46,281 bases of DNA from Planctomycetota bacterium (GCA_022562105.1 JADFPW010000001.1:1-46281); one strand, 5' to 3'; shown: positions 3,827 to 40,476, counted from the stretch's first letter. Numbers and translations: made by a program. Notes: generated by a model from the sequence alone, not told the origin.

Positions 3827-4606
3827 CTAGACGCCTACGATGTTGTAGCCGGCATCGACGAAGATGTTCTCGCCGGTGACGCCGCTGGACAGGTCGCTGG
3901 CCAAATACACTGCGGTTTTTCCTACTTCGCCCGGCTCGATGTTGCGGCCTAGCGGGGTCTTGTTGGTGCAAATCTCCATCATCTCCTCGATCCCGCCGAC
4001 GGCCATGGCTGACAGCGTCCGCAACGGGCCGGCGCTGATCGTGTTGACGCGGATCCCGCGCGGACCCAGTTCAACAGCCAGGTAGCGTGTGATGGCCTCC
4101 AGCGCCGCCTTGGCCACGCCCATGACGTTGTAACCCGGGATAACCTTCTGGCTGCCGTAGTAGGTCATGGCCATGATCGACCCGCCGTGGGGCATCATCT
4201 CCTTGGCACGGTTGGCCATGGCCAGCAGGCTGTAGGCGGAGATGTCCAACGCCTGGGCGAAGGCGTCTCGCGGCGTATCCACAAACTTGCCGATCTTGAG
4301 GTGGGCCCGCTCGGCGTAGGCGACCGAGTGGACCAGGAAGTCGATCGAATCGAAACGCTCCCTGGCGGCCGCAAAGGTGGCATCAAGGCTTTCGTCGCTG
4401 CAAACATCGCACGCCATCAGCCCTGAGTCCGAGAGGTTTTCCGCCTCCAGCGCCTTCTTGACCCGATGAAGATTCTTGTCGCCGGGCATGTAGGCATAGC
4501 CACACACCGCCCCTTCGGCCGTGAAGCTCTTGGCCACGTGCAACGCGATGCTTCGATCGTTGGCTATTCCGAAGATCAGCCCCTTTTTGCCGTCCAATAG
4601 TCCCAT
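3827..4606 (-). CDS. fabI: enoyl-[acyl-carrier-protein] reductase (NADH) FabI
   Basis: 259 aa. N-terminus MGLLDGKKGLIFGIANDRSIA. SDR fold with the Y...K catalytic region and a GENIFVDAGYNI C-terminus, typical of FabI. Confidence 0.93.
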   Translation of the reverse strand: MGLLDGKKGLIFGIANDRSIALHVAKSFTAEGAVCGYAYMPGDKNLHRVKKALEAENLSDSGLMACDVCSDESLDATFAAARERFDSIDFLVHSVAYAERAHLKIGKFVDTPRDAFAQALDISAYSLLAMANRAKEMMPHGGSIMAMTYYGSQKVIPGYNVMGVAKAALEAITRYLAVELGPRGIRVNTISAGPLRTLSAMAVGGIEEMMEICTNKTPLGRNIEPGEVGKTAVYLASDLSSGVTGENIFVDAGYNIVGV

Positions 4607-5522: not shown

Positions 5523-7286
5523 TCATGGTGATTTATCCCCTACCGGACCAGGTTCCACTAATCTTAACGTCTGATTCGCCGTCACGTTCGCCTGGGATTG
5601 TATTTTTCCGCATGGCCACCGGATTTCGACACGGGAGGCGCGTTCGGCGTCTCCCAGGCCGAAATGGAGCGTCTTGGAATGTCCGCTAAGGTAGCCGCCG
5701 CCGATCAAGAGTTCTCGCATCTGCACCGGCTGACCGTCCACGTGCACCGACACGCGGGCGTTGGCGGCGTCGCGGTTGCAGTGGCGACCTTCCAGATCGA
5801 TATTCAACCAATGGCCCACATTCTTCGAGACGTTGCGTAGCAGAGCCGGCGATCCGCCGTGGTTGTTGATGGCTAGATCCGGTCGGCCGTCCCCGTCGAA
5901 ATCCGAGACCGCCCCACCGCGACCGACATGGGTCTCGTCGAAATAGGGCCCGGCGGCCGCTCCGAGACGGTGCCACCGTTTGTCACTGCGTCGTTCATAA
6001 ATCTGAGAGCGTTGGGGCAGCATTTTGGGATTCGTAAGAACCTCCAGGGTCAGTTCGTCCTCGATGGTGCTGCCGTACACCACGAACAGGTCGCGATCCC
6101 CGTCGTTGTCGAAGTCCTCGAAACCAGCCGCCCATCCCACCAGGTCTAGATTGCTCTTGCGGAGTCCGACGGCTGGTGACCGGTCCTCGAAGAGCAGGGC
6201 GCCTTCCAGCGATTCGTTCACATAGAAGGCTGGATCCTCGGCCACCCAGTGGGTGACCAGGAAGTCCTGATCCCCGTCGGAGTCGAGATCGACGATGGCC
6301 ACTCCCATGCCGCCGCGCGGGTCGAATACGCCGGAGACTATCGCGACGTCTTCAAACGTCCCGTCGCCCTTGTTGCGGAACAGGCAGTCCAACGATTGAT
6401 CGTTGGAGACGAACAGATCGATCGCTCCGTCGTTGTCGAAGTCGCACCAGACGGCCTGCATGCTGCGTCCATGGGCGGCTGCTGTCCCGGAGATTTCCGT
6501 GACGTCTCGAAACGTCCCGTCGGGCTCCTGGTGAAACAGGTGATTCGGCAACGGCGGGTAATTCCCCGGCGTGGTCATCGGCGCCGGTCGCCCAGCCACC
6601 AAGGGGCGCGTGCGAGCCTTGGCTATGGGAAAATCAACATAGCGACAAAGATAGAGGTCCAGGCGACCGTCGCCGTCGTAGTCGCCCCAGGCGCTGCCCA
6701 GGCAATAGTCCGTCACACCGCCCAGTCCGACCATGTCGGTGACGTCGCGGAAGCGCCCGCCATCATTGCGAAACAGATTCACGCCTTCCAGATGGGTGAC
6801 CAGCAGATCGTCGTCGCCGTCGTTGTCGAAGTCCACGAACACCGCAGCCATGTCCATGCGCGACCGGGTCAACCCTGCGGCCTCGGTCACGTCGGTAAAC
6901 CGGCCGGCGCCGTCGTTGCGCCACAGTCTGCTACCCGGCAGTTTGTTGCGCTGGGTGGCATCCATAAGCAACGGCCCGTTCAGGTTGCACAGGTACAAAT
7001 CGTCGTCCCCGTCGCTGTCGTAGTCGCCCCAGGCGCAGCCCGAGCCGTTGTCCTCCGGAACCAGCGAAGCCCGCGTTTGACCGTTGAAGTGAACGAACCG
7101 CGGGAGGCTGGAGGCTGGGATCCTCTCAAATCGGATGGTCGGTGAGTTAGGCACCTGGCTTGGCGCCTGTTGGGCGGTCGTCGGCACGGTGAGCACCGCG
7201 GCGATGGCCAGCACGTACCCGCAGACCCTGCCCGTTGCAGGTTTCCAGGTTGTTCCGTCCCGTTTCGTCGCCAATTTCGCAACCAT
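5523..7286 (-). CDS. CRTAC1-family protein (FG-GAP/VCBS repeats plus ASPIC/UnbV C-terminal domain), secreted
   Basis: 587 aa with a signal-like N-terminus. Repeated DxDxDGDxD motifs (GDYDSDGDDDLYL, VDFDNDGDDDLLV, CDFDNDGAIDLFV, SDFDGDGRPDLAI). C-terminus NARVSVHVDGQ...GGGYLSGHSKTLHFGLG...VEIRWPCG is typical of UnbV_ASPIC. Confidence 0.85.
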   Translation of the reverse strand: MVAKLATKRDGTTWKPATGRVCGYVLAIAAVLTVPTTAQQAPSQVPNSPTIRFERIPASSLPRFVHFNGQTRASLVPEDNGSGCAWGDYDSDGDDDLYLCNLNGPLLMDATQRNKLPGSRLWRNDGAGRFTDVTEAAGLTRSRMDMAAVFVDFDNDGDDDLLVTHLEGVNLFRNDGGRFRDVTDMVGLGGVTDYCLGSAWGDYDGDGRLDLYLCRYVDFPIAKARTRPLVAGRPAPMTTPGNYPPLPNHLFHQEPDGTFRDVTEISGTAAAHGRSMQAVWCDFDNDGAIDLFVSNDQSLDCLFRNKGDGTFEDVAIVSGVFDPRGGMGVAIVDLDSDGDQDFLVTHWVAEDPAFYVNESLEGALLFEDRSPAVGLRKSNLDLVGWAAGFEDFDNDGDRDLFVVYGSTIEDELTLEVLTNPKMLPQRSQIYERRSDKRWHRLGAAAGPYFDETHVGRGGAVSDFDGDGRPDLAINNHGGSPALLRNVSKNVGHWLNIDLEGRHCNRDAANARVSVHVDGQPVQMRELLIGGGYLSGHSKTLHFGLGDAERASRVEIRWPCGKIQSQANVTANQTLRLVEPGPVGDKSP

Positions 7287-11567: not shown

Positions 11568-13016
11568 ATGAATCGCCCGTTTGGACATGACAACGCCGGC
11601 CTGCTGGTACGCCAGTGCCCGCAGGCGGTGTCGATTGGCCCGGCGCTCGCCGGGCTCGCCCGGCAGCCCCATCCATTCGTGCTGGAAAGCGTTTCCACCG
11701 ATTCGTCCGCCGGTCGCTATTCGATTCTGGGGTGTGATCCGGTGGACGAATTCGTGCAGCGAGACCTGGACGGCGGAGACTGGGTTGACGGTTTCCGGTC
11801 GGCGCTGGATCGATGGCCCGCCGTGCATTCACGCCCCGATGTGCCGTTTCCCGGCGGATGGGTCGGATTCGTCGGCTACGAGGCCGGCGCCGTCCTGGAG
11901 AACGTCCGCCCGCGTGTAGCGCCGGATGTGGACCAACCGGTCGTCGGCTTTCGCCTCTACGACAGTGCCCTCATCTGGGATCATGCCCGGGATCGATGCT
12001 TCGCCGTGGCGGTTGACTGGCCGCCTGACCTCCCGGTCACACGCCCATCAGCGGACGAACGCATAGATCGGCTGATGGAACTCGCTTGTCAGTCGCCTCG
12101 GCCCACACCCGATACTTTAGATTCGCCGGTAGGGCCGCCACCCGTCTCCAACATGACGCATGACCAGTATTTGCAGAAGGTGCGCCGAATCCTCGACTAC
12201 ATCGCGGCCGGCGACGCCTACCAGGTGAATCTGACCCAGCGGTTTACCACGGCGACTGCGGCATCACCGTTGGAGCTCTATCGCCGTCTGCGACGTGCGA
12301 ACCCCGCCGCGTACGCAGCCTGGCTTGACTGGGGCGACGGAGCGATCTTGAGCAGCTCTCCCGAGCTGTTTCTGGACCTGCGCGATGGGCGGGTGGTTAC
12401 TCGGCCGATCAAGGGTACGCGTCCGCGCATCGGCGATCCGGTGGTCGATGCGGCTGCCCAAGAGGAGTTGCTGCACAGCGCAAAGGACGCTGCCGAGTTG
12501 ACCATGATTATCGACTTGCTGCGCAACGACCTGGGCCGCGTGTGCGAGTTCGGTTCGATTCGCGTCGAGTCGGCCTCGACGTTGGAAACGCATCCGACGG
12601 TCTATCATCTGTCCGCCACGATAGTCGGGACGTTGCGGGAGGGCGTTTCGGCGCTCGATCTGCTACGGGCAGCGAGTCCGGGTGGTTCGGTAACCGGCTG
12701 CCCAAAGATCCGGGCCATGCAGATCATCAACGAACTGGAGCCGTCGCGTCGCAACGTCTACTGCGGCTCGATAGGCTACCTGGGACTGGACGGCTCGATG
12801 TGCATGAACATCGCCATCCGCACTATGATTCTGGATCGCGGACAGCTGCACCTCCATGCCGGCGGGGCGATCGTGGCCGACAGCGATCCCCAGGCTGAGT
12901 ACGAAGAAACACTGGCCAAGGCTCGGGGAATGTTCCGTGCTCTGGGATATGAGAATCCAGGCGAACTGTTTCCCACGCCTGCGCCATACGACGAGGCGGC
13001 CCCATGCACTCGGTGA
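11568..13016 (+). CDS. pabB: aminodeoxychorismate synthase component I (chorismate-binding enzyme)
   Basis: 482 aa. Motifs SPELFLDLRDGRVVTRPIKGTRPR, GGSVTGCPKIRAMQIINELE and YCGSIGYLG. Overlaps the downstream class IV aminotransferase gene. Confidence 0.88.
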   Translation: MNRPFGHDNAGLLVRQCPQAVSIGPALAGLARQPHPFVLESVSTDSSAGRYSILGCDPVDEFVQRDLDGGDWVDGFRSALDRWPAVHSRPDVPFPGGWVGFVGYEAGAVLENVRPRVAPDVDQPVVGFRLYDSALIWDHARDRCFAVAVDWPPDLPVTRPSADERIDRLMELACQSPRPTPDTLDSPVGPPPVSNMTHDQYLQKVRRILDYIAAGDAYQVNLTQRFTTATAASPLELYRRLRRANPAAYAAWLDWGDGAILSSSPELFLDLRDGRVVTRPIKGTRPRIGDPVVDAAAQEELLHSAKDAAELTMIIDLLRNDLGRVCEFGSIRVESASTLETHPTVYHLSATIVGTLREGVSALDLLRAASPGGSVTGCPKIRAMQIINELEPSRRNVYCGSIGYLGLDGSMCMNIAIRTMILDRGQLHLHAGGAIVADSDPQAEYEETLAKARGMFRALGYENPGELFPTPAPYDEAAPCTR

Positions 13017-15661: not shown

Positions 15662-15715
15662 CACCGGTTGCAAACCGGTGCCACACCTTGACCGGTTAAA
15701 AACCGGTGCCACACA
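15662..15715. repeat. two tandem REP units, family C (the RAYT-associated family)
   Basis: CACCGGTTGCAAACCGGTGCCACAC and GACCGGTTAAAAACCGGTGCCACACA. Same hairpin plus GTGCCACAC tail as the units flanking the RAYT at 38972-39595. Confidence 0.8.
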
Positions 15716-15728
15716 TACACACAAGGTT

Positions 15729-18700
15729 TCACGCCGGTCCCACGGTGAAATACTTGGCCTCGGGGTGATGACAGATCAGGGCGGTGGTGGACTGCTCCGG
15801 TTCGAGTTGGAACTCCTCTGAAATGGTCACTCCGATGCGCTCGGGATTGAGCAGGGGCCAAAGCTTCAACTGATCCTCCAAGCGCGGGCAGGCCGGGTAT
15901 CCAAAACTGTACCGCGACCCCTGATACCTCTGCTGGAACAGCCGCTGAATCTCGCGGGCGTCCGCGTCGGCAATTCCCAGCTCCACGCGGATCTGTTTGT
16001 GGATGAACTCAGCCAACGCCTCGGCGGACTCGACGCCCAGCCCATGAAGATGCAGGTAGTCCTGATACCGATCGGCTTGAAACCACTCGTGGGCCACTTC
16101 GCTGACCCGGCGCCCCATGGTCACCAGGGAGAACGCCACCACGTCCATCTCCCCACTGGATACCGGCCGAAAGAAATCGCTGATGCACCAGTAGGGTGCC
16201 TTGCGCCGACGCGGAAACTCGAAACGGACCAATTCTCGGCTTCGATCGTCGACATCGAAGACGATCAGCTCGTCGCCGTCCGACTGGGCGGGCCAGTAGC
16301 CGTAGATGGTCTGCGGTTGAAGTAGCTTTTCGGCCCGGCAGCGCTGCACGAGCTTGCGATAGATGGGTCGCACTTCGTCGTTGACGTAGCGATTGTACTG
16401 GGCCCGTGATCGGCCGGCCTTTTTATACTGCCATTGTACCTGAAACAGCATGTTCTCGTTCAGGAAGCCGAGCACAGCCGAGATATCGAGGCGTTCGACG
16501 ACCCGGGCCCCCCAAAACGGCGGCTCGGGGATGGGCACGTCCCGAGCGATGTCGGATCGAGCGGGCGTGGGAACGGGGGCTTCGATGCGATCGATGGACG
16601 GCGCCGGCGGATCAGGTTCGTCCGGCGGGCCACCAGATGCAACGGCTGCTGCCGGGGTCACGACTTGCGCGCGGGTCGCCGACTTGACGGAGACTCCCGG
16701 TGTGTCAGCCTCCCCGGCGACGATCTGTTTCATCAGCGTCAAACCATCGAACGCATCCTTGGCGTAGAACAGCGGGCCGCGATACTCGGGCACTAAATCC
16801 TGCTCGACATACTTGCGGGTCAGGGCTGCTCCCCCGAGCATGACCGCCGGGGTCAGCCCGCGCTCGTTCAGGACGGCCAGGTTTTCGCGCATCACCACCG
16901 TCGACTTGACCAGCAGGCCGGACATGCCGATGACGTCCGCCCCGGTCTTCTCGTAGGCCTCGATGATGCTGGCGATCGGTTGCTTGATGCCCAGGTTGTG
17001 GACCGTGTACCCGTTGTTGGTCAGGATGATGTCCACCAGATTCTTGCCGATGTCGTGGACGTCGCCGCGAACGGTGGCCAATACGATGCTGCCCCGGTCC
17101 GATTGCTCGGACTTGTCCATGTACGGTTCCAGGAAAGCCACCGCCGACTTCATCGCTTCGGCGCTCTTGAGCACGAAGGGCAATTGCATCTGCCCGGCTC
17201 CGAAGAGGTCGCCCACCGTCTTCATGCCGTCCAGTAGCAGCTCGTTGACGATGTCCAGCGGGCGATAGGTGCCCATGGCTTCGGTGAGATCGGCCTCGAG
17301 CTGCGTGCGATCGCCGTCGATGATGGCTTGTTTGAGTCGCTCCTCGACCGTGGTCGGTTTGGTTTCGGTTTTCGATTCGACGTCCGAGTGATCGACGAAC
17401 AGCTCCATGTACCGCTCGAGCGGCTCATAGCCTTCGCGTCGTCGATCGAAGATCAGGTCTTCGGCCGTCGTTCGCTGCTCGTCGTCGATCTTGAACAGGG
17501 GCACGATTCCGCCGGCGTGCAGGATGGCGGCGTCCAACCCGTGTTCGCGGGCATAGTGCAGGAACACGCTGTTCAGCACGCGGCGCAGCGGAGGTTTGAG
17601 TCCGAAGCTGATGTTGGACAGACCCAGGACGGTGTGCACCCCGGGCAGTTCCTCCTTGACCCGCCGCATACCCTCCAACGTCTCCATGCCCAGACGCCGA
17701 TCGTCTGCGTTCCCCGTACAGATGGTAAACGTGAGACAATCGAAGATCAGATCCTCCGGGGCGATGCCGTGGCGGTTGACCACCAGGTCGTAGATGCGCT
17801 TGGCCACCACGACCTTCTGATCCGCGGTCTTGGCCATCCCCTCCTCGTCGATGGTCAACGCCACCAGGGCAGCCCCGTAGCGTCGGGCTAGCTTGCAGAC
17901 CGTATCGAGTCTCTCCTCGCCGTCCTCCAGGTTGATGGAGTTGATGATCGACTTGCCCCCCAGCAGTTTGAGGGCGTCGTCCAGGACATCGACCTCGGTG
18001 CTGTCGATCACCAGCGGCACGGTGATTTCGGTCGAAAGGCGCTGAATGACTTCGTGCATGTCGCGGCGTTCGTCGCGCCCGACGTACGCGGCGCAAACGT
18101 CCAACGCGTGACTGCCCTTGCTCACCTGCTCCTTGGCCAGCTTGACGATGCCGTCGTAGTCCTCAGCCGCCAGCATTTCGCGGAACTTCTTGCTCCCGTT
18201 GGCGTTGGTTCGCTCGCCGATGGACAGGATGTCGCTCTCTTGCCGCAAGGTGACCGACTGGTAGATGCTGCTCACCGACGGCTCGTGGGTCACCCGACGA
18301 CGCTTCGGAGATCGAGTGCCGACCGCATCGACCACCGCGGCCAAATGCTCGGGCGTGGTCCCGCAGCACCCGCCGACCGCGTTGAGCCCGTCCTGATCAA
18401 TGAACTCCACCAGCCAGCGGGCCAACTCCGCCGGCGTCAGGGGATAATACAACTGACCCTCGACCAATTGCGGCAGACCGGCGTTAGGCTGAACCAGCAG
18501 CATGCGGTCGCAGTGTGAACTCAGATAGCGAATGTGCTCGCTCATCTCTTGCGGCCCGGTGGCGCAGTTCAGGCCGATCACCTTGACGCTGGGGTAGGCT
18601 TCAAGTGCAGCGACGGCGGCACCGATCTCCGTCCCCACCAGCATGGTGCCGGTGGTCTCGATGGTCACGGTGACCATGATGGGCACGGTTCGGCCGCACT

Positions 18701-19235
18701 CGGCCATGGCTTGCTCGGCGGAGACGATGGCGGTCTTGGATTGCAGGATGTCTTGACACGTTTCGATCAGAAACGCATCGACGCCGCCGTCCATGAGCCC
18801 GCGACACTGTTCGGTGTAGCTGTCCACCAACGTGTCCCAGTCGGTATGACGCAGGGTGGGCAGCTTGGTCCCCGGCCCGATCGAACCGATCACGAACCGT
18901 GGCTTGGCGGGCGTATCGAACGATTCAGCGGCGCTTCGGGCGATCTCGGCGGCTTGGCAATTGATTCGCCGGGTTTCGCTTTCCAGCCCAAACTCGTCCA
19001 GCAGCAGTTTTGTGGCCCCGAACGTGTTCGTCTCGATCGCGTCGCACCCGACGGCCAGGAAGCCGCGGTGAATGTCGCCGATGACGTCGGGCCGAGTCTG
19101 GGTCAGGACTTCGATGCAGTTCTCCAGATCCCGGTAGTCCGATAGAGGCAGGTCTCGGGCGTGGCATTGCGTACCCATCGCCCCATCGAAAACCAGAACC
19201 CGCTCCTTCAATGTGTCCAGTAGCTTCGACTGCAT
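15729..19235 (-). CDS. metH: cobalamin-dependent methionine synthase
   Basis: 1168 aa. Contains the Hcy-methyltransferase, pterin-binding and B12-binding (GDVHDIGKN) modules, plus the C-terminal AdoMet activation domain. Confidence 0.97.
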   Translation of the reverse strand: MQSKLLDTLKERVLVFDGAMGTQCHARDLPLSDYRDLENCIEVLTQTRPDVIGDIHRGFLAVGCDAIETNTFGATKLLLDEFGLESETRRINCQAAEIARSAAESFDTPAKPRFVIGSIGPGTKLPTLRHTDWDTLVDSYTEQCRGLMDGGVDAFLIETCQDILQSKTAIVSAEQAMAECGRTVPIMVTVTIETTGTMLVGTEIGAAVAALEAYPSVKVIGLNCATGPQEMSEHIRYLSSHCDRMLLVQPNAGLPQLVEGQLYYPLTPAELARWLVEFIDQDGLNAVGGCCGTTPEHLAAVVDAVGTRSPKRRRVTHEPSVSSIYQSVTLRQESDILSIGERTNANGSKKFREMLAAEDYDGIVKLAKEQVSKGSHALDVCAAYVGRDERRDMHEVIQRLSTEITVPLVIDSTEVDVLDDALKLLGGKSIINSINLEDGEERLDTVCKLARRYGAALVALTIDEEGMAKTADQKVVVAKRIYDLVVNRHGIAPEDLIFDCLTFTICTGNADDRRLGMETLEGMRRVKEELPGVHTVLGLSNISFGLKPPLRRVLNSVFLHYAREHGLDAAILHAGGIVPLFKIDDEQRTTAEDLIFDRRREGYEPLERYMELFVDHSDVESKTETKPTTVEERLKQAIIDGDRTQLEADLTEAMGTYRPLDIVNELLLDGMKTVGDLFGAGQMQLPFVLKSAEAMKSAVAFLEPYMDKSEQSDRGSIVLATVRGDVHDIGKNLVDIILTNNGYTVHNLGIKQPIASIIEAYEKTGADVIGMSGLLVKSTVVMRENLAVLNERGLTPAVMLGGAALTRKYVEQDLVPEYRGPLFYAKDAFDGLTLMKQIVAGEADTPGVSVKSATRAQVVTPAAAVASGGPPDEPDPPAPSIDRIEAPVPTPARSDIARDVPIPEPPFWGARVVERLDISAVLGFLNENMLFQVQWQYKKAGRSRAQYNRYVNDEVRPIYRKLVQRCRAEKLLQPQTIYGYWPAQSDGDELIVFDVDDRSRELVRFEFPRRRKAPYWCISDFFRPVSSGEMDVVAFSLVTMGRRVSEVAHEWFQADRYQDYLHLHGLGVESAEALAEFIHKQIRVELGIADADAREIQRLFQQRYQGSRYSFGYPACPRLEDQLKLWPLLNPERIGVTISEEFQLEPEQSTTALICHHPEAKYFTVGPA

Positions 19236-28492: not shown

Positions 28493-28519
28493 CACCGGTT
28501 GAAAACCGGTGCCACACAG
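28493..28519. repeat. REP unit, family C
   Basis: CACCGGTTGAAAACCGGTGCCACACAG. Identical to the unit on the right flank of the RAYT (39568-39594). Confidence 0.75.
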
Positions 28520-28540: not shown

Positions 28541-29065
28541 TCACAGGCGACCCTGGAGGTTCTTGAGGAAGCCTTTCACCAGCGGAGGTGGAATGTCGCC
28601 CAGGCTCGCCGGGGGGATCTCGTCGAGCATCAACTGCTGAACGGCGGCCTTGGTGCGACGCCGATCGGTGCGCAGCTGGTTGGCGATTCGGTCGGCATGG
28701 TCGAGCTTGGAGTCGCTCATGGCTTGTACGAATCGCTCGATCAGCTTGCCCACGTCTGCGATCGCCTCGACCGTGGGGATGGCGGCGGCGGTTTCGGGCG
28801 TTCGGGACGGCATGGCGCCTTCGGGCGGGATGCGATCCTCGTGGTCCAGGGCGGCGGCTGCACGGGATGACTCAGCTCGTGCCCGGGCGTCGGCTTTCTC
28901 CTGCTGATCGTCGATGGGGGCCAAGGGAATGGCCTCGTCCTCGTCCGGGGGCAGGGGCACGTAGACGCTCTCCTTGCACGAGGGACATCGGCCTCGCTTG
29001 CCCCCAGCCTCGTCGGGGGCCTTGACCATTTTGCCGCAGTGCGAGCAATGGAACTTGATGGGCAT
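28541..29065 (-). CDS. zinc-ribbon hypothetical protein
   Basis: 174 aa from MPIKFHCSHCGK...CPSCK. GGAGGA 5 nt upstream of the ATG. Lies directly downstream of der. Confidence 0.6.
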   Translation of the reverse strand: MPIKFHCSHCGKMVKAPDEAGGKRGRCPSCKESVYVPLPPDEDEAIPLAPIDDQQEKADARARAESSRAAAALDHEDRIPPEGAMPSRTPETAAAIPTVEAIADVGKLIERFVQAMSDSKLDHADRIANQLRTDRRRTKAAVQQLMLDEIPPASLGDIPPPLVKGFLKNLQGRL

Positions 29066-29084
29066 GCCGATCCTCCGTTGGACG

Positions 29085-30413
29085 CTACGGGGCGTCCTTT
29101 CCCCGGCTTGCACGGAACATCAATCGTATGGGGATTTCCTCGAATGGCAACAACTCACGGAAACGGTTTACCAGGAAACGCTCGTATTGCTTGGTGATCA
29201 GCCCCGGATTGTTGATGAATAGCACGATGGTCGGCGGGGCGACGGCAACCTGGGTTGCGTAATAGATCTTGGGCGCCCGGGCTCCATGCTTGGGCGAGGG
29301 GGCCCGAATGGCTAGGCCCGCAGCCAGGGCGTTGTTCAACTGTGACGTCGTTACGCGTTGCTGCGATTGCTTTTGCAACGACCGCGACAGATCGATCAAG
29401 CCTTCCAGATTGCGACCCTCCAACGCGGAGATGAACGCCACCGGGGCGAAGGTCAGCAGCGGCAGGGTCTTGGTCAGGTAGTCGCCGAACTCACCCGTAG
29501 GGACGCGGCCGGCGCCCAGATCCCATTTGTTGATGACGATGATGCACGGCTTGTACTCTTGGGATATCGTCTCGGCCAGTCTCTTATCCACCACGCTGAT
29601 CGATTCGGTGGCGTCGATGAACAAGAGCACCACGTCGGCCCGGCGAATGGCTCGGGTGGCCCGGGTGTAGCCGTAGAACTCGATGCTGTCACCCAACTTG
29701 ACGCGCTTGCGAACGCCGGCGGTGTCGATCAGCAGGACGGCATTCCCATCCTTCTCGATCCGCACGTCCACCGCATCACGGGTGGTGCCGGGCACTTCGC
29801 TGACGATGACTCGCGGCTCACCGGCCAGGGCGTTGATGAAGGTGCTCTTGCCGGTGTTGCGTTTGCCCACCACGGCCAGCTTGACGATCGGTTCGGAGGG
29901 TGGCTTTTCCTCGGCATCGCCCACCAGTTCGACTATCCGCTCCAGCAGTTCGCGGCGGCCCAGATTGTGGCGTGCGCTGATGCACATCGGCTCGCCATAC
30001 CCGAGTCGGATAAACTCGCCGGCCAGCGATTCCATGTGGGGTTCATCGACTTTGTTGACCACCAATTGTACGTGGTCACTGTGGCGGCGGAGCAGAGTGG
30101 CCACCCGGGAATCCAGCGGGGCGATCCCATCCCGAACGTCCACCACGAAGAGCAACAGCGACGCCTGGGCGATACCCAGGACGATCTGCCGCTCGACCTC
30201 CTTGGTCAGCCCGTCGCAATCGTCGAGGCCGTATCCGCCGGTATCCAGCAGCTCGAAGTAGACCCCGTCCACCTCGCACAGAGCGCTGACCCGATCGCGG
30301 GTCACGCCCGCCGTGGGCTCCACGATGCTCACCATTCGGCGCACCAGACAGTTCAGCAGCGAGCTCTTGCCCACGTTCGGGCGACCCACAATGGCTACGA
30401 TCGGCAACGCCAT
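29085..30413 (-). CDS. der: ribosome-associated GTPase Der (EngA), two G domains plus KH-like domain
   Basis: 442 aa from MALPIVAIVGRPNVGKSSL. Second P-loop VVGKRNTGKST. DTGG/DTAG and NKVD/NKWD motifs. Confidence 0.95.
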   Translation of the reverse strand: MALPIVAIVGRPNVGKSSLLNCLVRRMVSIVEPTAGVTRDRVSALCEVDGVYFELLDTGGYGLDDCDGLTKEVERQIVLGIAQASLLLFVVDVRDGIAPLDSRVATLLRRHSDHVQLVVNKVDEPHMESLAGEFIRLGYGEPMCISARHNLGRRELLERIVELVGDAEEKPPSEPIVKLAVVGKRNTGKSTFINALAGEPRVIVSEVPGTTRDAVDVRIEKDGNAVLLIDTAGVRKRVKLGDSIEFYGYTRATRAIRRADVVLLFIDATESISVVDKRLAETISQEYKPCIIVINKWDLGAGRVPTGEFGDYLTKTLPLLTFAPVAFISALEGRNLEGLIDLSRSLQKQSQQRVTTSQLNNALAAGLAIRAPSPKHGARAPKIYYATQVAVAPPTIVLFINNPGLITKQYERFLVNRFRELLPFEEIPIRLMFRASRGKDAP

Positions 30414-36517: not shown

Positions 36518-36754
36518 ATGCTTCTGGCCATTCGGGATACGCTCTACGAAGGGAGCTGGGAGGACTTCCTGCTTGATCTGCGGGAGCGTTTGTCGGACCG
36601 GCCTTACGTTTTTGATGTGCATCCGGCGAGCCCGCGACTCAAGGACACCATGCGTCGCCACCTGGAGATCATCGAGCAGTTGAGCCGATGGGAACGCGAC
36701 CACGGTGTCACACTACACAGCGAGCCTGAATCGCTTGGGAAAACCGAGGAGTAG
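36518..36754 (+). CDS. small hypothetical protein
   Basis: 78 aa from ATG (MLLAIRDTLYEGSWEDFLLDL...). Ends 4 nt before the GTG start of the next gene. Start codon uncertain. Confidence 0.35.
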   Translation: MLLAIRDTLYEGSWEDFLLDLRERLSDRPYVFDVHPASPRLKDTMRRHLEIIEQLSRWERDHGVTLHSEPESLGKTEE

Positions 36755-36758
36755 CGAC

Positions 36759-38063
36759 GTGCCCTACCGTACATTCGCCGTTTGCACCCTGGCTGCGATG
36801 GTCGTCGCGCCGCTTGCCTCTGCCCAAGTCTCGTACCGCCAGCCGGAGGAACTGGCCCTCGCTGCGGACCTGGCCAAGGCCAACCTGAGTTCCGACTGGA
36901 CCCTATCGCTATCGCTGGGAAGCGCCGAGCAGATTCAAGACGCTCGGGTAGTCGGTGACGCCCTCTACGTATGGACGTCGGGGGGCTCTCTCTATGGTCT
37001 CGACCGGCACCGCGGATTGGTCCGGTGGACCCAGCAGTTGGGCGACGCTGCCCGCTACCCGATCCACGGGCCGACGCATATGAATCGATTGGACGGGGGA
37101 AGGCTGACGGTGGTGGTCACGTTTGATCGGGTGCTGCTGTTCGACTCCTACGACGGGCAAATGGTCGGTCGCATGGATCTCGACTTCGCCCCAACCAGCG
37201 CGGCGGCGGCGGTGGGTTCGATGCTCTTCCTCGGCGGTGGCGATCAAATGGTCCACGCGGTGCAATGGTGCGGGCTGTGTCCGGGGCAGAGTTACGAGCA
37301 CTGGCGGGTGATGGCCGGCGGGTCGGTTCAAGCGACGCCTATTGTGGTGCGTCCGGGGGTGCTTTTCTACGCCTCCACCGGTGGGCAGTTGGTCAGCGCT
37401 ACCGCGTTGGACAAGACAGGCCTATGGGGTCGCAAGCTGCACACGCCGGTCCGTGTGGACATGGTGGCCCGTTCCGATGGCCTCTACGTCACCGGCGACA
37501 ACGCGTCGATCTACCGTTTTGATCCGGCCACCGGGGCGTTGCTCCAACGCTATCGCCTGCCCGCGACGGTGACGTCCACGCCGGTGTTGGACGACGGGGA
37601 TCTGTTTGCCCTCGCCGCCGACGGGGCTCTCTACTCGGTGGATCCCATCTCCGCCGAGATTCGGTGGAGTCAACCCGGGACGACGGCCCTCCTGGCGGTT
37701 CAGGAAAAGCAACTCGCCCTGCACGGCCGTGACCACGACCTGGTCATCGTCGATCGATTCACCGGCCGGGAATTGGGGCGACTCGATTTGAATCGCGTCG
37801 ATCGTTTTGTGTCCAATCGACTTGACGATGCGGTCTATCTGCTGGGGGACAACGGCCAAATCCTGGCGGCTCGGCCTGCGGGTATCCCGTACCAGCGTTC
37901 GGCTGAGTTGTCGGAAGCGGCCTTGTGGCGACACAGTGCGCCTGCTAGGCGGATGGCTGGGAAACAGTCCGGTGGGACTACAGCCGTGGCGATCTCGGCG
38001 GCCGATCAGGATCCGCTCCGCAGCAAGAGCACATTGCCCACACAGGTTTCGGAGACGCCGTAG
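36759..38063 (+). CDS. PQQ-like (BamB-like) beta-propeller repeat protein, secreted
   Basis: 434 aa from a GTG 7 nt after GAGGAG. Signal peptide FAVCTLAAMVVAPLASAQ. Repeated G.LY.LD...G...W blades. Confidence 0.75.
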   Translation: MPYRTFAVCTLAAMVVAPLASAQVSYRQPEELALAADLAKANLSSDWTLSLSLGSAEQIQDARVVGDALYVWTSGGSLYGLDRHRGLVRWTQQLGDAARYPIHGPTHMNRLDGGRLTVVVTFDRVLLFDSYDGQMVGRMDLDFAPTSAAAAVGSMLFLGGGDQMVHAVQWCGLCPGQSYEHWRVMAGGSVQATPIVVRPGVLFYASTGGQLVSATALDKTGLWGRKLHTPVRVDMVARSDGLYVTGDNASIYRFDPATGALLQRYRLPATVTSTPVLDDGDLFALAADGALYSVDPISAEIRWSQPGTTALLAVQEKQLALHGRDHDLVIVDRFTGRELGRLDLNRVDRFVSNRLDDAVYLLGDNGQILAARPAGIPYQRSAELSEAALWRHSAPARRMAGKQSGGTTAVAISAADQDPLRSKSTLPTQVSETP

Positions 38064-38097
38064 CAGCAGATCGATCGGTTCCCTCGCACCGTCAATC

Positions 38098-40476
38098 ATG
38101 TCCACACGCAAGCCTCAACGCGCCCTCATCAGCGTTTACGACAAGACCGGCCTCGTCGATTTCGCTCGCGCTCTGGTGGACGAGTTCGGCATCGAGATCA
38201 TCTCCACCGGTGGGACGGCCAAGCTGCTGACCGAAGCGAAGATCCCGGTCACGCTTGTCGAGGAGGTCACCGGCTCGCCCGAGTTGCTCGGAGGACGGGT
38301 CAAGACTCTGCATCCTAAGATCCACGCCGCCATCCTGGCTGACCGGGACAACCCCGAGCACATGCGTCAGCTCGACGAGCAGGGCATCAAGCCCATCGAC
38401 ATGGTGGTGGTCAACCTCTACCCCTTCGAGAAGACGGTAGCCGACCCTAATTGCACGTTCGAGCAGGCCATCGAAATGATCGACATCGGCGGGGTGACTC
38501 TGCTGCGGGCTGCCGCGAAGAATCACAAACACGTCATCGTGGTGCCCTGGTCCGACGGTTATTACGATTTGATCCTCGGGCGACTACGTTCGACCGTGAC
38601 GGGAGGTGAACCCTGCGGGTTGAAAGAGGACAGCTTCAACGCTTTTTGGGCGACCTGCTCATACGACTCGATCGTCGCCTCCTGGTTGAGCCGGTCTGAT
38701 GACGATGAGTCGCCAGACTTCCACGCCGTTCGGATGTGGCGCACACAGCATCTGCGATACGGTGAGAATCCACATCAATCTGCCGATCATCTTCTGATCT
38801 ATGATACAGAAGAGTGGCGTCACGACCTCGCAGTCGGATCATTGGACTCATTATCCTTCAATAACTGTGTCGATGCCAGCGCGGCTTTGGAGCTGTGCGC
38901 CGAGCTCACCCTGGCGTTCGGTGCCGGGAAACGACGCCCGGAAATAGGATCCCAAGAAGCGCGGCATGGAGCAGTGTGGCACCGGTTTTCAACCGGTGAA
39001 CAGTGTGGCACCGGCTTTCAACCGGTGAAGCTGGATAACCCGAGCTCATCACTCCAACGAGTTGACGACGAACGACACACTCGACGAAACCTTCCTCACA
39101 TTCAAACACCCGGCAAGACCTACTTTGTGACGTTCCGCGTCAAGGGCGATCAGAAACTGAGTCCAAATGAACGGCAGATCGTTCTGCAAGCCTGCCGATT
39201 CTGGGATGGGAAGAAGATTCATCTTCATGCCTGTGTGATCATGCCCGATCATGTACATTTGCTCTTCGCGCCTCAAGAGGTCAAGGGAGGGCAATGGGTG
39301 TCTCTTAGTGAGATCCTGCACTCGATCAAACGATACTCGGCTCGTGAGATCAATAAGCTGCGAGGGCGAACCGGGCCGCTGTGGCTGGACGAGTGTTTCG
39401 ATCGCATTGTTCGTAATGAGCGGGAGTTCTGCGAGAAAGCGGACTACATTGCCGATAACCCGATCAAGGAAGGACTCGTTGATGCGGAACCGTATGAATG
39501 GTGGTGGGATGAGGAAGCTCACCGGTTGGGAATTGGTGCCGAGAGCGAGAATCGACAACAACACAAACACCGGTTGAAAACCGGTGCCACACAGGAGGGT
39601 GCCACACAGGAGGGTGCCACACAGGAGGGTGCCACACAGGAGCGTGGCGCACAGGGGTTGTCCTATTGTTGCACATTCACCAAGCATACCAATGCCTGCG
39701 GTGTAGGGGTCGGGGCGGATCGCGTCGGTGCTTACCGGCGAGCGTACCTGGGCGATCCTAACGCAGCAATGGGAGGCATCCTGGCCTGTGATTTTAACGT
39801 CCAGTCCGAGTTCGCCGAGGCCGTGATGAATACCTACACTCGATGGGGCAAGGAGGCGGGCAGTCGGGGGTTTTTCGTTGAAGTGTGGATCGCTCCATCG
39901 TTCGACGAAGCCGCCCTGCAACTCATCCGCTCATCCAAGAACTGGGGGAAACGCGTCCAACTGCTCGACGCTCGTAACCTACTGGAGGCCCCCGCATCGC
40001 CGAACGAGCTTCAGTATCGCAGCGTGGCCGGGGGAATGCTGGTCCAGACGCCGGATGTCGTCGGGCTCAACGAGGGTGATTGGAAGGTGGCCACGACACG
40101 AGAACCCACCGATGCGGAAATGGATGATCTGCGGCTGGCGTGGCTGGTGTGCAAGCACACCAAGAGCAACGCCATCTCCATCTGCAAGGACGGGATGCTC
40201 ATCGGCAACGGGGCGGGGCAGGCGTCGCGGGTGATGAGCTGTCGGATCGCCACTTGGCTGGCCAATGACAACGGCCACGCGGACCAATTGGCGGGCGCGG
40301 TGGCGGCTTCGGATGCGTTTTTTCCATTTCGCGATGGCCCCGATCTGCTGGTGGATGCGGGAGTGACCGCGATCATCCAACCCGGGGGGTCCAAGCGCGA
40401 TCAGGATGTTATCGATGCCTGCAACGAGCGGGCGGTGGCCATGGTGCTGACCGGCACTCGCCACTTCAAGCACTAG
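38098..40476 (+). CDS. purH: bifunctional IMP cyclohydrolase/AICAR transformylase PurH carrying an in-frame RAYT/REP insertion
   Basis: N-terminal part: ALISVYDKTGLVDFA, STGGTAKLL, GGRVKTLHPKIH, VVVNLYPF, LRAAAKNH, RYGENPHQ, SFNNCVDASAALEL. C-terminal part: TKHTNACGV, KSNAI, GNGAGQASRV, ASDAFFPFRDG, IQPGGSKRD, RHFKH. About 250 extra residues lie between the two parts, with no stop codon. Confidence 0.85.
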   Translation: MSTRKPQRALISVYDKTGLVDFARALVDEFGIEIISTGGTAKLLTEAKIPVTLVEEVTGSPELLGGRVKTLHPKIHAAILADRDNPEHMRQLDEQGIKPIDMVVVNLYPFEKTVADPNCTFEQAIEMIDIGGVTLLRAAAKNHKHVIVVPWSDGYYDLILGRLRSTVTGGEPCGLKEDSFNAFWATCSYDSIVASWLSRSDDDESPDFHAVRMWRTQHLRYGENPHQSADHLLIYDTEEWRHDLAVGSLDSLSFNNCVDASAALELCAELTLAFGAGKRRPEIGSQEARHGAVWHRFSTGEQCGTGFQPVKLDNPSSSLQRVDDERHTRRNLPHIQTPGKTYFVTFRVKGDQKLSPNERQIVLQACRFWDGKKIHLHACVIMPDHVHLLFAPQEVKGGQWVSLSEILHSIKRYSAREINKLRGRTGPLWLDECFDRIVRNEREFCEKADYIADNPIKEGLVDAEPYEWWWDEEAHRLGIGAESENRQQHKHRLKTGATQEGATQEGATQEGATQERGAQGLSYCCTFTKHTNACGVGVGADRVGAYRRAYLGDPNAAMGGILACDFNVQSEFAEAVMNTYTRWGKEAGSRGFFVEVWIAPSFDEAALQLIRSSKNWGKRVQLLDARNLLEAPASPNELQYRSVAGGMLVQTPDVVGLNEGDWKVATTREPTDAEMDDLRLAWLVCKHTKSNAISICKDGMLIGNGAGQASRVMSCRIATWLANDNGHADQLAGAVAASDAFFPFRDGPDLLVDAGVTAIIQPGGSKRDQDVIDACNERAVAMVLTGTRHFKH
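38972..39658 (+). mobile_element. REPtron: RAYT (IS200/IS605-like Y1 transposase domain, about 39061-39510) flanked by inverted family-C REPs
   Basis: RAYT motifs: RRNLPHIQTPGKTYFVTFRV, HUH (MPDHVHLLF), SIKRYSAREIN, FDRIVRNE and ADYIADNPIKEGLV. Left flank has 2 x CAGTGTGGCACCGG(T/C)TTTCAACCGGTGAA. Right flank is the inverted CACCGGTTGAAAACCGGTGCCACACAGG. Confidence 0.8.
39584..39658 (+). repeat. 15-bp tandem repeat (about 5 units) encoding (GATQE)n
   Basis: GTGCCACACAGGAGG repeated three times exactly, then GTGCCACACAGGAGC and GTGGCGCACAGGGGT. The unit is the tail of the family-C REP. Its length is a multiple of 3. Confidence 0.85.

Follow-up and report, generated by a model that had tools for sequence, protein, structure and literature searches.

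The gene described here is a purH located in a 46,281-nt stretch of DNA from a Planctomycetota bacterium (GCA_022562105.1, JADFPW010000001.1:1-46281). This stretch is referred to below as the window and, being one region of one genome, is the basis of the counts given for that genome. The purH gene carries, in frame and within a single helix-to-strand loop of the encoded PurH, a cassette of ~253 codons in which a complete REP-associated tyrosine transposase (RAYT) is flanked by repetitive extragenic palindromes (REPs). The explanation favored here, to which a probability of about 0.72 is assigned, is that of a functional chimeric purH, in which a nested REP-RAYT-REP element (a 'REPtron') would be co-translated as an internal domain of the enzyme and would persist in the way that inteins do, without any splicing.

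The chimeric purH gene and its conservation

As listed, the open reading frame (ORF) runs from an upstream TTG at position 37807 to 40476; when read from the ATG at 38098, it gives a protein of 792 aa whose N-terminus agrees, in the alignment, with the N-termini of all homologues (Table 1). An initial annotation, made from the sequence of the window, had described an uninterrupted ORF of 792 codons, a complete RAYT with its REPs inside PurH, a cassette free of stop codons that keeps the purH frame on both sides, and a RAYT with neither an ATG before the domain nor a terminal stop. These observations were borne out by the continuity of the ORF, by the split of the PurH profile match and by repeat analysis. 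No stop codon was present in the cassette in the purH frame, while each of the other five frames contained 3-14 of them. The stretch from aa 271 to the HUH motif contained no Met. A GTG at 39025, within REP2, was the sole in-frame codon 5′ of the RAYT domain that resembled a start, and the domain ended without a stop. The repeat inventory of that annotation (two direct REPs, one inverted REP and a 15-bp array) was correct as far as it went, but it had missed a degenerate inverted REP at 39519-39540. The cassette presented a GC content of ~53%, against ~62% in its surroundings. The chance of an insertion being on the same strand, in frame and free of stops was crudely estimated at ~0.002. This estimate, the six matches to the REP pattern in the window against none in shuffled sequences, and the recurrence of the arrangement in >100 independent assemblies argue that it is more than a product of chance.

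The alignment of the protein to profiles, one of the checks that the initial annotation had proposed, divided PurH into two blocks with Y1_Tnp between them. NF002049 (PurH) matched residues 5-270 and ~524-792 with 564 bits (cutoff 402), and PF02142 and PF01808 were matched too, while TIGR00355 reached 490.6 bits, under its cutoff of 528, its match being cut in two by the insert. The motifs KTLHP, NLYPF, AAKNH and SFNN and the pair K529-H530, which are assigned to the active sites on the basis of ATIC structures, were invariant or nearly so in 108 sequences, K529 and H530 being invariant in all 108. In the comparison with the closest relative (locus L085), the ratio of nonsynonymous to synonymous substitution rates (dN/dS) was 0.136 for the N-terminal and 0.189 for the C-terminal part of PurH, and by this measure both parts are under purifying selection.

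The interposed domain was recognized by the equivalog model NF047646 (REP_Tyr_transpos; 89 bits, cutoff 80) over aa 334-468, corresponding to profile positions 4-145 of 146, and by PF01797 (Y1_Tnp; 25.1 bits, cutoff 23), while the IS200 model NF033573 gave 19.4 bits, below its cutoff of 55. Its sequence also matched that of the E. coli TnpAREP 4ER8 (E 9.5e-4), with HVH and YIADNP in register with HMH and YIYINP. The RxxLPH, HUH (H-V/A-H), GxxWxxExFDR and YxxNP motifs were retained in ~96 of 98 inserts. Thus, by all the sequence-level criteria tested, the domain is a RAYT, save for not being a free-standing gene, as it is embedded in the purH frame without a start or a stop of its own. Between the window and L085, the RAYT dN/dS was 0.116, comparable to that of the PurH parts. 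The initial annotation had interpreted the preserved frame as selection for a translatable PurH in which the inserted domain was tolerated. The selection was upheld, but this ratio and the retained HUH and Tyr residues speak against toleration, indicating that the RAYT domain is itself under purifying selection. Two homologues, P0107 and P0108 (inserts of 241 and 265 aa), were found to harbor a different Y1_Tnp lineage at the usual PurH loop, with IMPDRVHLL or VMSDHTHLL as motifs and with YVCDQ or YVCGQ replacing YxxNP.

An AlphaFold2 model built with the 108-sequence alignment, with a mean predicted local distance difference test score (pLDDT) of 82, was confident in the PurH parts and in a RAYT module at residues 330-474 (pLDDT >90), and disordered in two segments of ~40 residues each, 279-318 (pLDDT <50) and 475-518. 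In this model the insert exits PurH after helix 254-275 and rejoins it at strand 523-529, where the invariant Lys-His pair is located. This places the insertion, whose structural context the initial annotation had proposed to verify, in a predicted helix-to-strand loop of the AICARFT domain. As a whole, the model matched PurH structures (Mycobacterium tuberculosis PurH 3ZZM, E 8.5e-41). Locally, the insert matched TnpAREP 4ER8_A (E 1.7e-8; root-mean-square deviation of 3.6 Å over 139 columns) and also TnpA proteins of the IS200/IS605 family (ISDra2, IS608 and IS200 TnpA), and the RAYT domain predicted alone reached a pLDDT of 89.6. The predicted architecture is that of a folded RAYT module held on two disordered tethers.

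A search with the protein encoded by the whole ORF revealed >110 distinct homologues of 740-965 aa, sharing 50-84% identity over 99-100% of the query, from Phycisphaerae/Planctomycetota assemblies deposited in NCBI, JGI, ENA and Logan, on contigs of up to several Mb. The Pfam triplet PF02142, PF01797 and PF01808 was present in many of them, and the insertion point was constant in the alignments, the insert being preceded by the helix ...SFNNyxDAxAALxLCAEL and followed by the strand CvFIKHTNACG. The window and L085 were 88% identical at the DNA level along the whole locus, cassette included. Comparison of the orthologous locus among relatives, also suggested at the outset, showed genes of PQQ-like beta-propeller families preceding purH in all six related loci examined (L001, L003, L004, L085, L086 and L088). 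Such proteins were named 'PurH/REP element-mobilizing transposase RayT' by JGI and often just 'transposase' by NCBI; in fact, the full-length PurH proteins P0002, P0005, P0014, P0020, P0074 and P0099 bore the NCBI names 'transposase' or 'REP-associated tyrosine transposase'.

This conservation already contradicts the alternative that the initial annotation had offered, of a very recent hit in a backed-up gene, in which the chimera would be a pseudogene or a tolerated allele and purine synthesis would be sustained by another gene. The single window visible from the genome, the GC content of the cassette, lower than that of purH, and an in-frame TGA in the purH of L210 would suit a recent accident. 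Yet the same site was occupied in >110 lineages, down to ~50% identity, the catalytic-motif residues of PurH were invariant in the 108 sequences, the dN/dS of both PurH halves was low (0.136-0.189), and the window and L085 shared the cassette at a locus-wide DNA identity of 88%, so that a recent accident is regarded as highly improbable. An artefact of assembly or gene calling, namely a chimeric contig fusing a RAYT locus to purH, is suggested by the data being all metagenome-assembled. However, the NCBI, JGI, ENA and Logan assemblies independently gave the same architecture, with lineage-specific sequences and contigs reaching several Mb, leaving this explanation a negligible chance.

Three states of the purH site were observed among the relatives: empty (P0106, P0112, P0114 and P0115), occupied by a REP doublet without RAYT (L004/P0113), and occupied by the full cassette. 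In L004 (positions 6850-6925), as well as in P0116, a RAYT-less PurH carried at this loop a forward REP and a degenerate inverted one (…LWHRFATGESRKPVDARKQTGAT…). The pair in L004/P0113 may have remained as a REPIN-like scar when the RAYT was lost, or it may have been inserted as REPs only. In another homologue (P0095, 820 aa), the RAYT was found at aa 582-730, a second PurH site lying downstream of the main AICARFT match, which points to an independent invasion of PurH. Two candidates for disrupted genes were set aside. The short protein P0242, a possible broken frame, was truncated by the contig end. P0245, from the short contig L210, had been called as RAYT plus PurH-C only and was another possible broken frame. 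A single in-frame TGA was located at L210 ~125-135, in the B segment of PurH and thus upstream of the cassette, and represents either a sequencing error or a rare pseudogene.

It could also be argued that active PurH lacks the insert, the cassette being lost by DNA excision in a fraction of cells or by RNA processing steered by pairing of the inverted REPs, skipped by ribosomal bypass or by internal initiation that yields separate polypeptides, or taken out by protein splicing. REP1 and REP3, being perfect inverted repeats of 25 nt, could pair in RNA or single-stranded DNA and unite the PurH halves, REP2 contains an in-frame GTG, and the relatives with an empty site or a REP-only scar mean that RAYT loss does occur. 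However, a cassette that is removed or bypassed would need no selection for an in-frame, stop-free state, and every full-length homologue was in frame and stop-free despite linker lengths of ~200-370 aa. No stop was found at the end of the RAYT domain among the homologues, nor was a conserved internal Met found upstream of it; a Met occurred there in 26 of the 84 homologues, and its position was scattered. Since the upstream linker of the window has no Met and none is conserved in those 84 homologues, internal initiation of a separate polypeptide was rejected as a general mechanism. Protein splicing was likewise rejected: Pfam detected only MGS, AICARFT and Y1_Tnp, the Hint/intein domain and the splicing residues were absent, the junction residues were variable, and the Cys that follows the insert is native, occurring also in RAYT-less PurH. 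Moreover, excision in the IS200/IS605 family uses ends on the same strand, unlike the flanking REPs of purH, which lie on opposite strands. Removal or bypass of the cassette is thus considered improbable.

Table 1. Features of the chimeric purH locus and of the window (positions counted from the first nucleotide of the window), and loci or proteins in which a RAYT is nested in another gene.
Feature	Position, locus or protein	Strand	Basis and remarks
Upstream neighbor, PQQ-like beta-propeller gene	36705..38063	+	89% aa identity to the L085 neighbor; synteny marker
Chimeric purH-RAYT gene	38098..40476	+	792 codons; ATG 38098, stop 40474-40476; ORF continuity, profile matches, >110 full-length homologues
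PurH N-terminal part (IMP cyclohydrolase/MGS-like domain and AICARFT start), aa 1-270	38098..38907	+	NF002049 residues 5-270; ends in helix ...SFNNCVDASAALELCAEL
PurH B segment, aa ~147-252	38536..38853	+	Replaced independently of the remainder of the gene in RAYT-bearing relatives
Upstream linker, aa 271-322	38908..39063	+	Predicted disordered; largely translated REP1 and REP2 (VWHRFSTG, CGTGFQPV)
REP1	38974..38998	+	GT-GTGG foot, hairpin CACCGGTT-TTC-AACCGGTG
REP2	39003..39027	+	Direct copy of REP1 with one mismatch (stem T->C, C-A mismatch)
RAYT (Y1/HUH) domain, aa 323-473	39064..39516	+	NF047646; 4ER8 sequence and fold match; AlphaFold2 pLDDT >90; dN/dS 0.116
RRNLPH motif	39082-39099	+	
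HUH motif HVH, aa 385-387	39250-39258	+	
GPLWLDECFDR motif	39373-39405	+	
Catalytic-Tyr motif YIADNP, aa 450-455	39445-39462	+	
Degenerate inverted REP (TCACCGGTTGGGAATTGGTGCC)	39519..39540	-	Fourth REP of the cassette; translated HRLGIG; repeat analysis
REP3	39568..39592	-	Perfect inverted copy of REP1, 25/25 complementary; translated HRLKTGAT
Tandem array, 15-bp unit GGTGCCACACAGGAG	39583..39657	+	Four good copies and a degenerate fifth; translated (GATQE)n
PurH C-terminal part, aa 524-792	39667..40473	+	Begins at strand CCTFTKHTNACG with the conserved Lys-His pair
Dispersed REP doublet	15662..15712	-	1 and 2 mismatches; 17 nt past the stop of minus-strand ORF 15729-19235
Dispersed single REP, identical to REP1	28493..28515	-	25 nt past the stop of minus-strand ORF 28541-29113
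ValRS with nested RAYT	L010, L012, L019, L036, L065		
LeuRS with nested RAYT	L008		
IleRS with nested RAYT	L029		
AlaRS with nested RAYT	L017, L042, L053, L055, L063, L075		
ThrRS with nested RAYT	L058, L078, L079		
PriA with nested RAYT	L020-L023, L026-L028, L037		Eight loci
RecG with nested RAYT	L043, L054, L057, L062		
MetH with nested RAYT	L059, L061		Two different sites
RdgB/Ham1 with nested RAYT	L018, L050		
ThiE with nested RAYT	L048		
DnaK/Hsp70 with nested RAYT	P0261		
DNA methyltransferases with nested RAYT	MmeI-like L030, L056; DUF1156 L011		
Hydantoinase-like protein with nested RAYT			Pfam/BLAST

REP hairpins inside and outside the cassette

The REPs were base-for-base identical between the window and L085, within linkers that had diverged and whose dN/dS (0.84 for the upstream and 0.44 for the downstream linker) suggests an almost neutral evolution. 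Across 11 related purH loci, the inverted layout, with REP1 and REP2 in plus and REP3 in minus orientation, was found to recur, and the GTGG foot, the 8-bp stem and the 3-nt loop were retained, with compensatory changes in the stem, whose paired arms were CACCGGTT/AACCGGTG, CACCGGCT/AGCCGGTG, GACCGGCA/TGCCGGTC, CACAGGCT/AGCCTGTG and CACCGGCG/CGCCGGTG. A different RAYT was accompanied by a different REP stem. Judging from these alignments, the REP hairpins are conserved as DNA and co-vary with the RAYT. The REP is free of stops in five of the six reading frames and can be read through for this reason; its translations constitute the conserved 'linker motifs' VWHRFSTG, CGTGFQPV and HRLKTGAT seen in the protein alignment.

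In the tandem array, every unit contains a minus-strand copy of the REP 5′ foot (GGTGCCACA being the reverse complement of TGTGGCACC). The bases of the foot were unchanged in the units of L085, while adjacent synonymous sites varied. A tandem amplification 3′ of the RAYT was also observed in the L085 equivalent, and six REPs spaced by 42 bp were observed in L014 (10493-10725); in the window, L085 and L014, these amplified foot or REP arrays are translated as low-complexity repeats.

Besides the copies in the cassette, the same REP occurred at two other sites of the window (Table 1), both of which share the orientation of the adjoining ORF, corresponding to the classic position of REPs 3′ of genes. 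A second RAYT was not found in the 46-kb window. A metagenome scan with GTGGCACCGGTTNNNAACCGGTG revealed at least 155 REP copies in at least 120 contigs; among the listed copies, none was located less than 400 nt from a RAYT, and a RAYT was encoded in 2 of the 120 listed contigs. Copies of the same REP were also observed in metagenome contigs deep in stop-free stretches of 700-1450 codons, in L114 (7141-7163), L160 (1842-1864), L121 (5461-5483), L134 (1845-1867) and L137 (2236-2258), which suggests that the REP has been inserted in frame into other large genes as well. The flanks of one related purH (L007) contained other REP families, with a GTAG foot (349-374, 970-995, 4105-4155 and 12807-12829), that presumably serve other RAYTs.

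Cassette exchange and nesting in other genes

The evidence for replacement of the cassette came from close pairs of loci. L086 and L088 were 96% identical over ~18 kb, except for an unalignable block of ~1.04 kb (purH nt 450-1484) comprising a middle segment of PurH and the whole cassette up to the first PurH-C codon. Within this block, the two RAYTs shared 50% identity and the REP stems were CACCGACT and CACCGGTT, respectively. The presence of different cassettes in genomes that are 96% identical points to horizontal exchange of the cassette. In other close pairs, the difference was confined either to the B segment (aa ~147-252) or to the RAYT, so that purH appeared as a mosaic in which the N, B, cassette and C modules are replaced independently. 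The distances of PurH and RAYT were uncorrelated (Mantel r = -0.02), and a strictly vertical co-inheritance of both was dropped on the basis of this value and of the close-pair mosaics. In a neighbor-joining tree, the PurH RAYTs fell into four pure clades instead of one, although its 150 columns are too weak to count independent origins.

The B segment lies between AAKNH and SFNN and showed 33-58% DNA identity inside loci that were otherwise 88-96% identical. Its replacement was seen in the window (38536-38853), L086 (7112-7447), L087, L088 (10451-10777) and L006, and B-segment types were shuffled among the lineages of RAYT-bearing alleles. In four close RAYT-less pairs, a small control sample, such replacement was absent.

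The nesting of RAYTs was not restricted to purH. An exhaustive profile search of 1.84 billion representative proteins and a one-genome-per-species scan were carried out with the RAYT-domain profile, and 465 representatives were retrieved at E <= 1e-30; about one third of the best 150 were long proteins with an internal RAYT. When the RAYT domain alone served as the protein query, the matches were almost all free-standing RAYTs, and those embedded in PurH escaped detection owing to a word-index bias. According to Pfam and BLAST identification, about a dozen hosts besides purH were recognized (Table 1), and inverted hairpins flanked the RAYT inside the host ORF in most of the 20 nested loci checked. 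Among the matches listed, the nested forms came mostly from Planctomycetota, Verrucomicrobiota and a few assemblies labeled otherwise, while the free-standing relatives (150-250 aa) came mostly from Acidobacteriota, Desulfobacterota, Bacteroidota, Cyanobacteria and other phyla. The RecG-RAYT of L043 was found in an assembly labeled Prosthecobacter debontii. No cultured carrier of PurH-RAYT was found among the listed matches of the genome scan, almost all of which were metagenome-assembled genomes. By domain content, then, nesting within the same RAYT clade is general and not a one-off event in a purine enzyme.

These observations bear on a further explanation, in which the RAYT fold would have been exapted, i.e., recruited for a structural, regulatory, or nucleic-acid-binding or nicking function of the host that has nothing to do with REP mobility. 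It would be retained because PurH or the cell benefits from it, and would no longer be a transposase. The long persistence of the arrangement under purifying selection, the retention of the domain in some carriers devoid of the Tyr, and the scarcity of REP copies near most related loci are consistent with exaptation, and in the RAYT/REPIN literature RAYTs are generally viewed as domesticated, single-copy and vertically inherited. However, the hosts have no function in common, ranging from enzymes of purine, methionine and thiamine metabolism to five aminoacyl-tRNA synthetases, PriA, RecG and DnaK. This makes a host-specific role unlikely and speaks for the host protein being a carrier, not a functional partner. 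In addition, the domain is placed on long disordered linkers that evolve neutrally, its cognate REP hairpins are dispersed and co-vary with it, and the cassette is swapped between near-identical genomes, as expected for an element and unlike a fixed host domain. Exaptation is therefore regarded as unlikely.

Under the favored explanation of a functional chimera bearing a nested element, the gene would be transcribed and translated from the signals of purH itself, with the cassette as an internal domain in a surface loop of the AICARFT domain. The protein would comprise, in this order, PurH-N, a REP-encoded disordered linker (~40 aa), the folded HUH/Tyr nuclease, a second REP-encoded disordered linker and PurH-C, with PurH folding around a loop that bears a tethered monomeric HUH nuclease. 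The RAYT domain may bind REP hairpins with a GTGG foot in single-stranded DNA and cleave them, and this action may maintain and spread the scattered REP family of the genome. An essential and constitutively expressed host gene would supply the expression of an element lacking its own promoter and start codon, and the element would be shielded from loss, since the cell would not survive any deletion other than a precise, in-frame one, thus occupying the same niche as inteins, minus protein splicing. Exchange could proceed through homologous recombination via the conserved PurH motifs or through breaks (nicking) stimulated by the RAYT at REPs, and swaps between purH alleles would sometimes take an adjacent purH stretch along.

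Several points weigh against this explanation. The case for translation through the cassette is built from frame conservation and dN/dS, the proposed persistence advantage is an evolutionary argument, and nearly all the sequences come from metagenome assemblies. The Tyr was lost in P0037 and P0049, and the HUH region was divergent in P0107 and P0108, which suggests that activity is not indispensable for retention of the insert. Almost no extra REP copies were found in the 10-kb flanks of the related purH loci; some carriers may thus have small REP families, which makes active spreading less convincing. Finally, the GC content at third codon positions (GC3) of the RAYT was below that of PurH in most loci, though tracking it, and this fits horizontal movement and equally a weaker codon selection.

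Taking the other hosts into account, a broader proposal can be made, and the balance tips slightly in its favor: REP-RAYT-REP cassettes may constitute an unrecognized class of nested mobile elements, which would reside in frame in surface loops of essential genes, mainly in Planctomycetota and Verrucomicrobiota, as tethered, unspliced domains, would be swapped at fixed sites, scrambling the adjacent host sequence, and would make the host enzyme the obligatory carrier of the REP transposase of the genome.

Comparison with known systems

E. coli TnpAREP, the subject of the 4ER8 work, reportedly recognizes the foot and the hairpin of GTAG REPs in single-stranded DNA. Recognition of GTAG REPs by this protein is also treated in PMC8266576. 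The purH RAYT resembles the RAYT/TnpAREP 'REPtron' (4ER8; class 2 of Quentin et al. 2018, PMC6006769) in its Y1/HUH fold, in its HUH and YxxNP motifs, in passing the NCBIfam model REP_Tyr_transpos, in its inverted flanking REP hairpins with a 5′ tetranucleotide foot, and in the dispersal of the same REP in the genome, mostly just past gene ends. The GTGG foot, a variant of GTAG, has precedents in Opitutus terrae (PMC3733652) and among class 2 genes, some of which carry it (PMC6006769). In contrast to the known systems, the purH RAYT lacks its own start, stop and promoter, forms an internal domain of an essential enzyme and is flanked by REPs that are coding. Moreover, RAYT/TnpAREP genes are usually described as vertically inherited, whereas the purH cassette is replaced horizontally at one fixed site.

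The IS200/IS605 family shares with the purH element a homologous HUH/Tyr domain acting on hairpins of single-stranded DNA. Unlike these insertion sequences, which have several identical copies, a Y...Q motif and tnpB, the purH element is present as one copy in the window, has YxxNP, has end hairpins on opposite strands and lacks tnpB. Its cassette also leaves the target gene undisrupted.

Palindromic repeats inserted in frame in housekeeping genes, where they add 20-80 residues in tolerant loops, are known as Rickettsia palindromic elements and intragenic REPs. Di Nocera et al. 2013 (PMC3733652) described in-frame intragenic GTAG/CGTC REPs, GTGG-footed in O. terrae, in DNA repair genes and tRNA synthetases, and Quentin et al. 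2018 (PMC6006769) reported REPs inside subclass 2.4 tnpAREP genes. The REP-only purH scars (L004/P0113) are exactly such insertions. These are short repeats only, whereas in the full purH cassette a transposase lies between the repeats, co-translated and long conserved.

The RAYT/REP system is thus known, but the nested read-through lifestyle proposed for it is undescribed in the searchable literature. The initial annotation knew of no described case and, in keeping with this, neither a combination of RAYT with purH nor a nested RAYT was found in the literature searched, whose scope excluded subscription journals and in which absence is not proof. Few bacterial repeats are as common as RAYTs and REPs, and the long-term persistence of RAYTs is debated; a nested RAYT offers a testable mechanism, in which both expression and protection from deletion would be borrowed from the host gene. 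The cassette-linked mosaic of purH may reflect recombination stimulated by the element within a core gene. HUH endonucleases serve as DNA-protein coupling tags, and the nested RAYTs would represent natural HUH nucleases tethered to enzymes and to fork helicases (PriA, RecG). Long RAYT-bearing proteins have been discarded as errors in surveys (PMC6006769). Such discards, together with the 'transposase' names, imply that metabolic reconstructions from metagenome-assembled Phycisphaerae genomes may mistakenly score purH, valS, alaS and similar genes as absent or disrupted.

The closest parallel in lifestyle is provided by inteins and homing introns, which are also selfish elements encoding a nuclease and placed in frame at a conserved site of essential, conserved genes. 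Inteins share host types with the nested RAYTs (aminoacyl-tRNA synthetases, replication and repair helicases, DnaK-type proteins and metabolic enzymes), and they also present empty and occupied alleles, horizontal exchange at the same site, and replacement of adjacent host sequence resembling co-conversion. The likeness is one of lifestyle only. The purH element has neither a Hint domain nor splicing residues, its junctions vary in length and composition, and it would stay in the mature protein on disordered tethers. Likewise, its nuclease is an HUH enzyme of single-stranded DNA, suited to dispersed hairpins, in contrast to the double-strand homing endonuclease with which inteins address the empty allele. 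In this way, the niche of inteins would apparently be usable without protein splicing.

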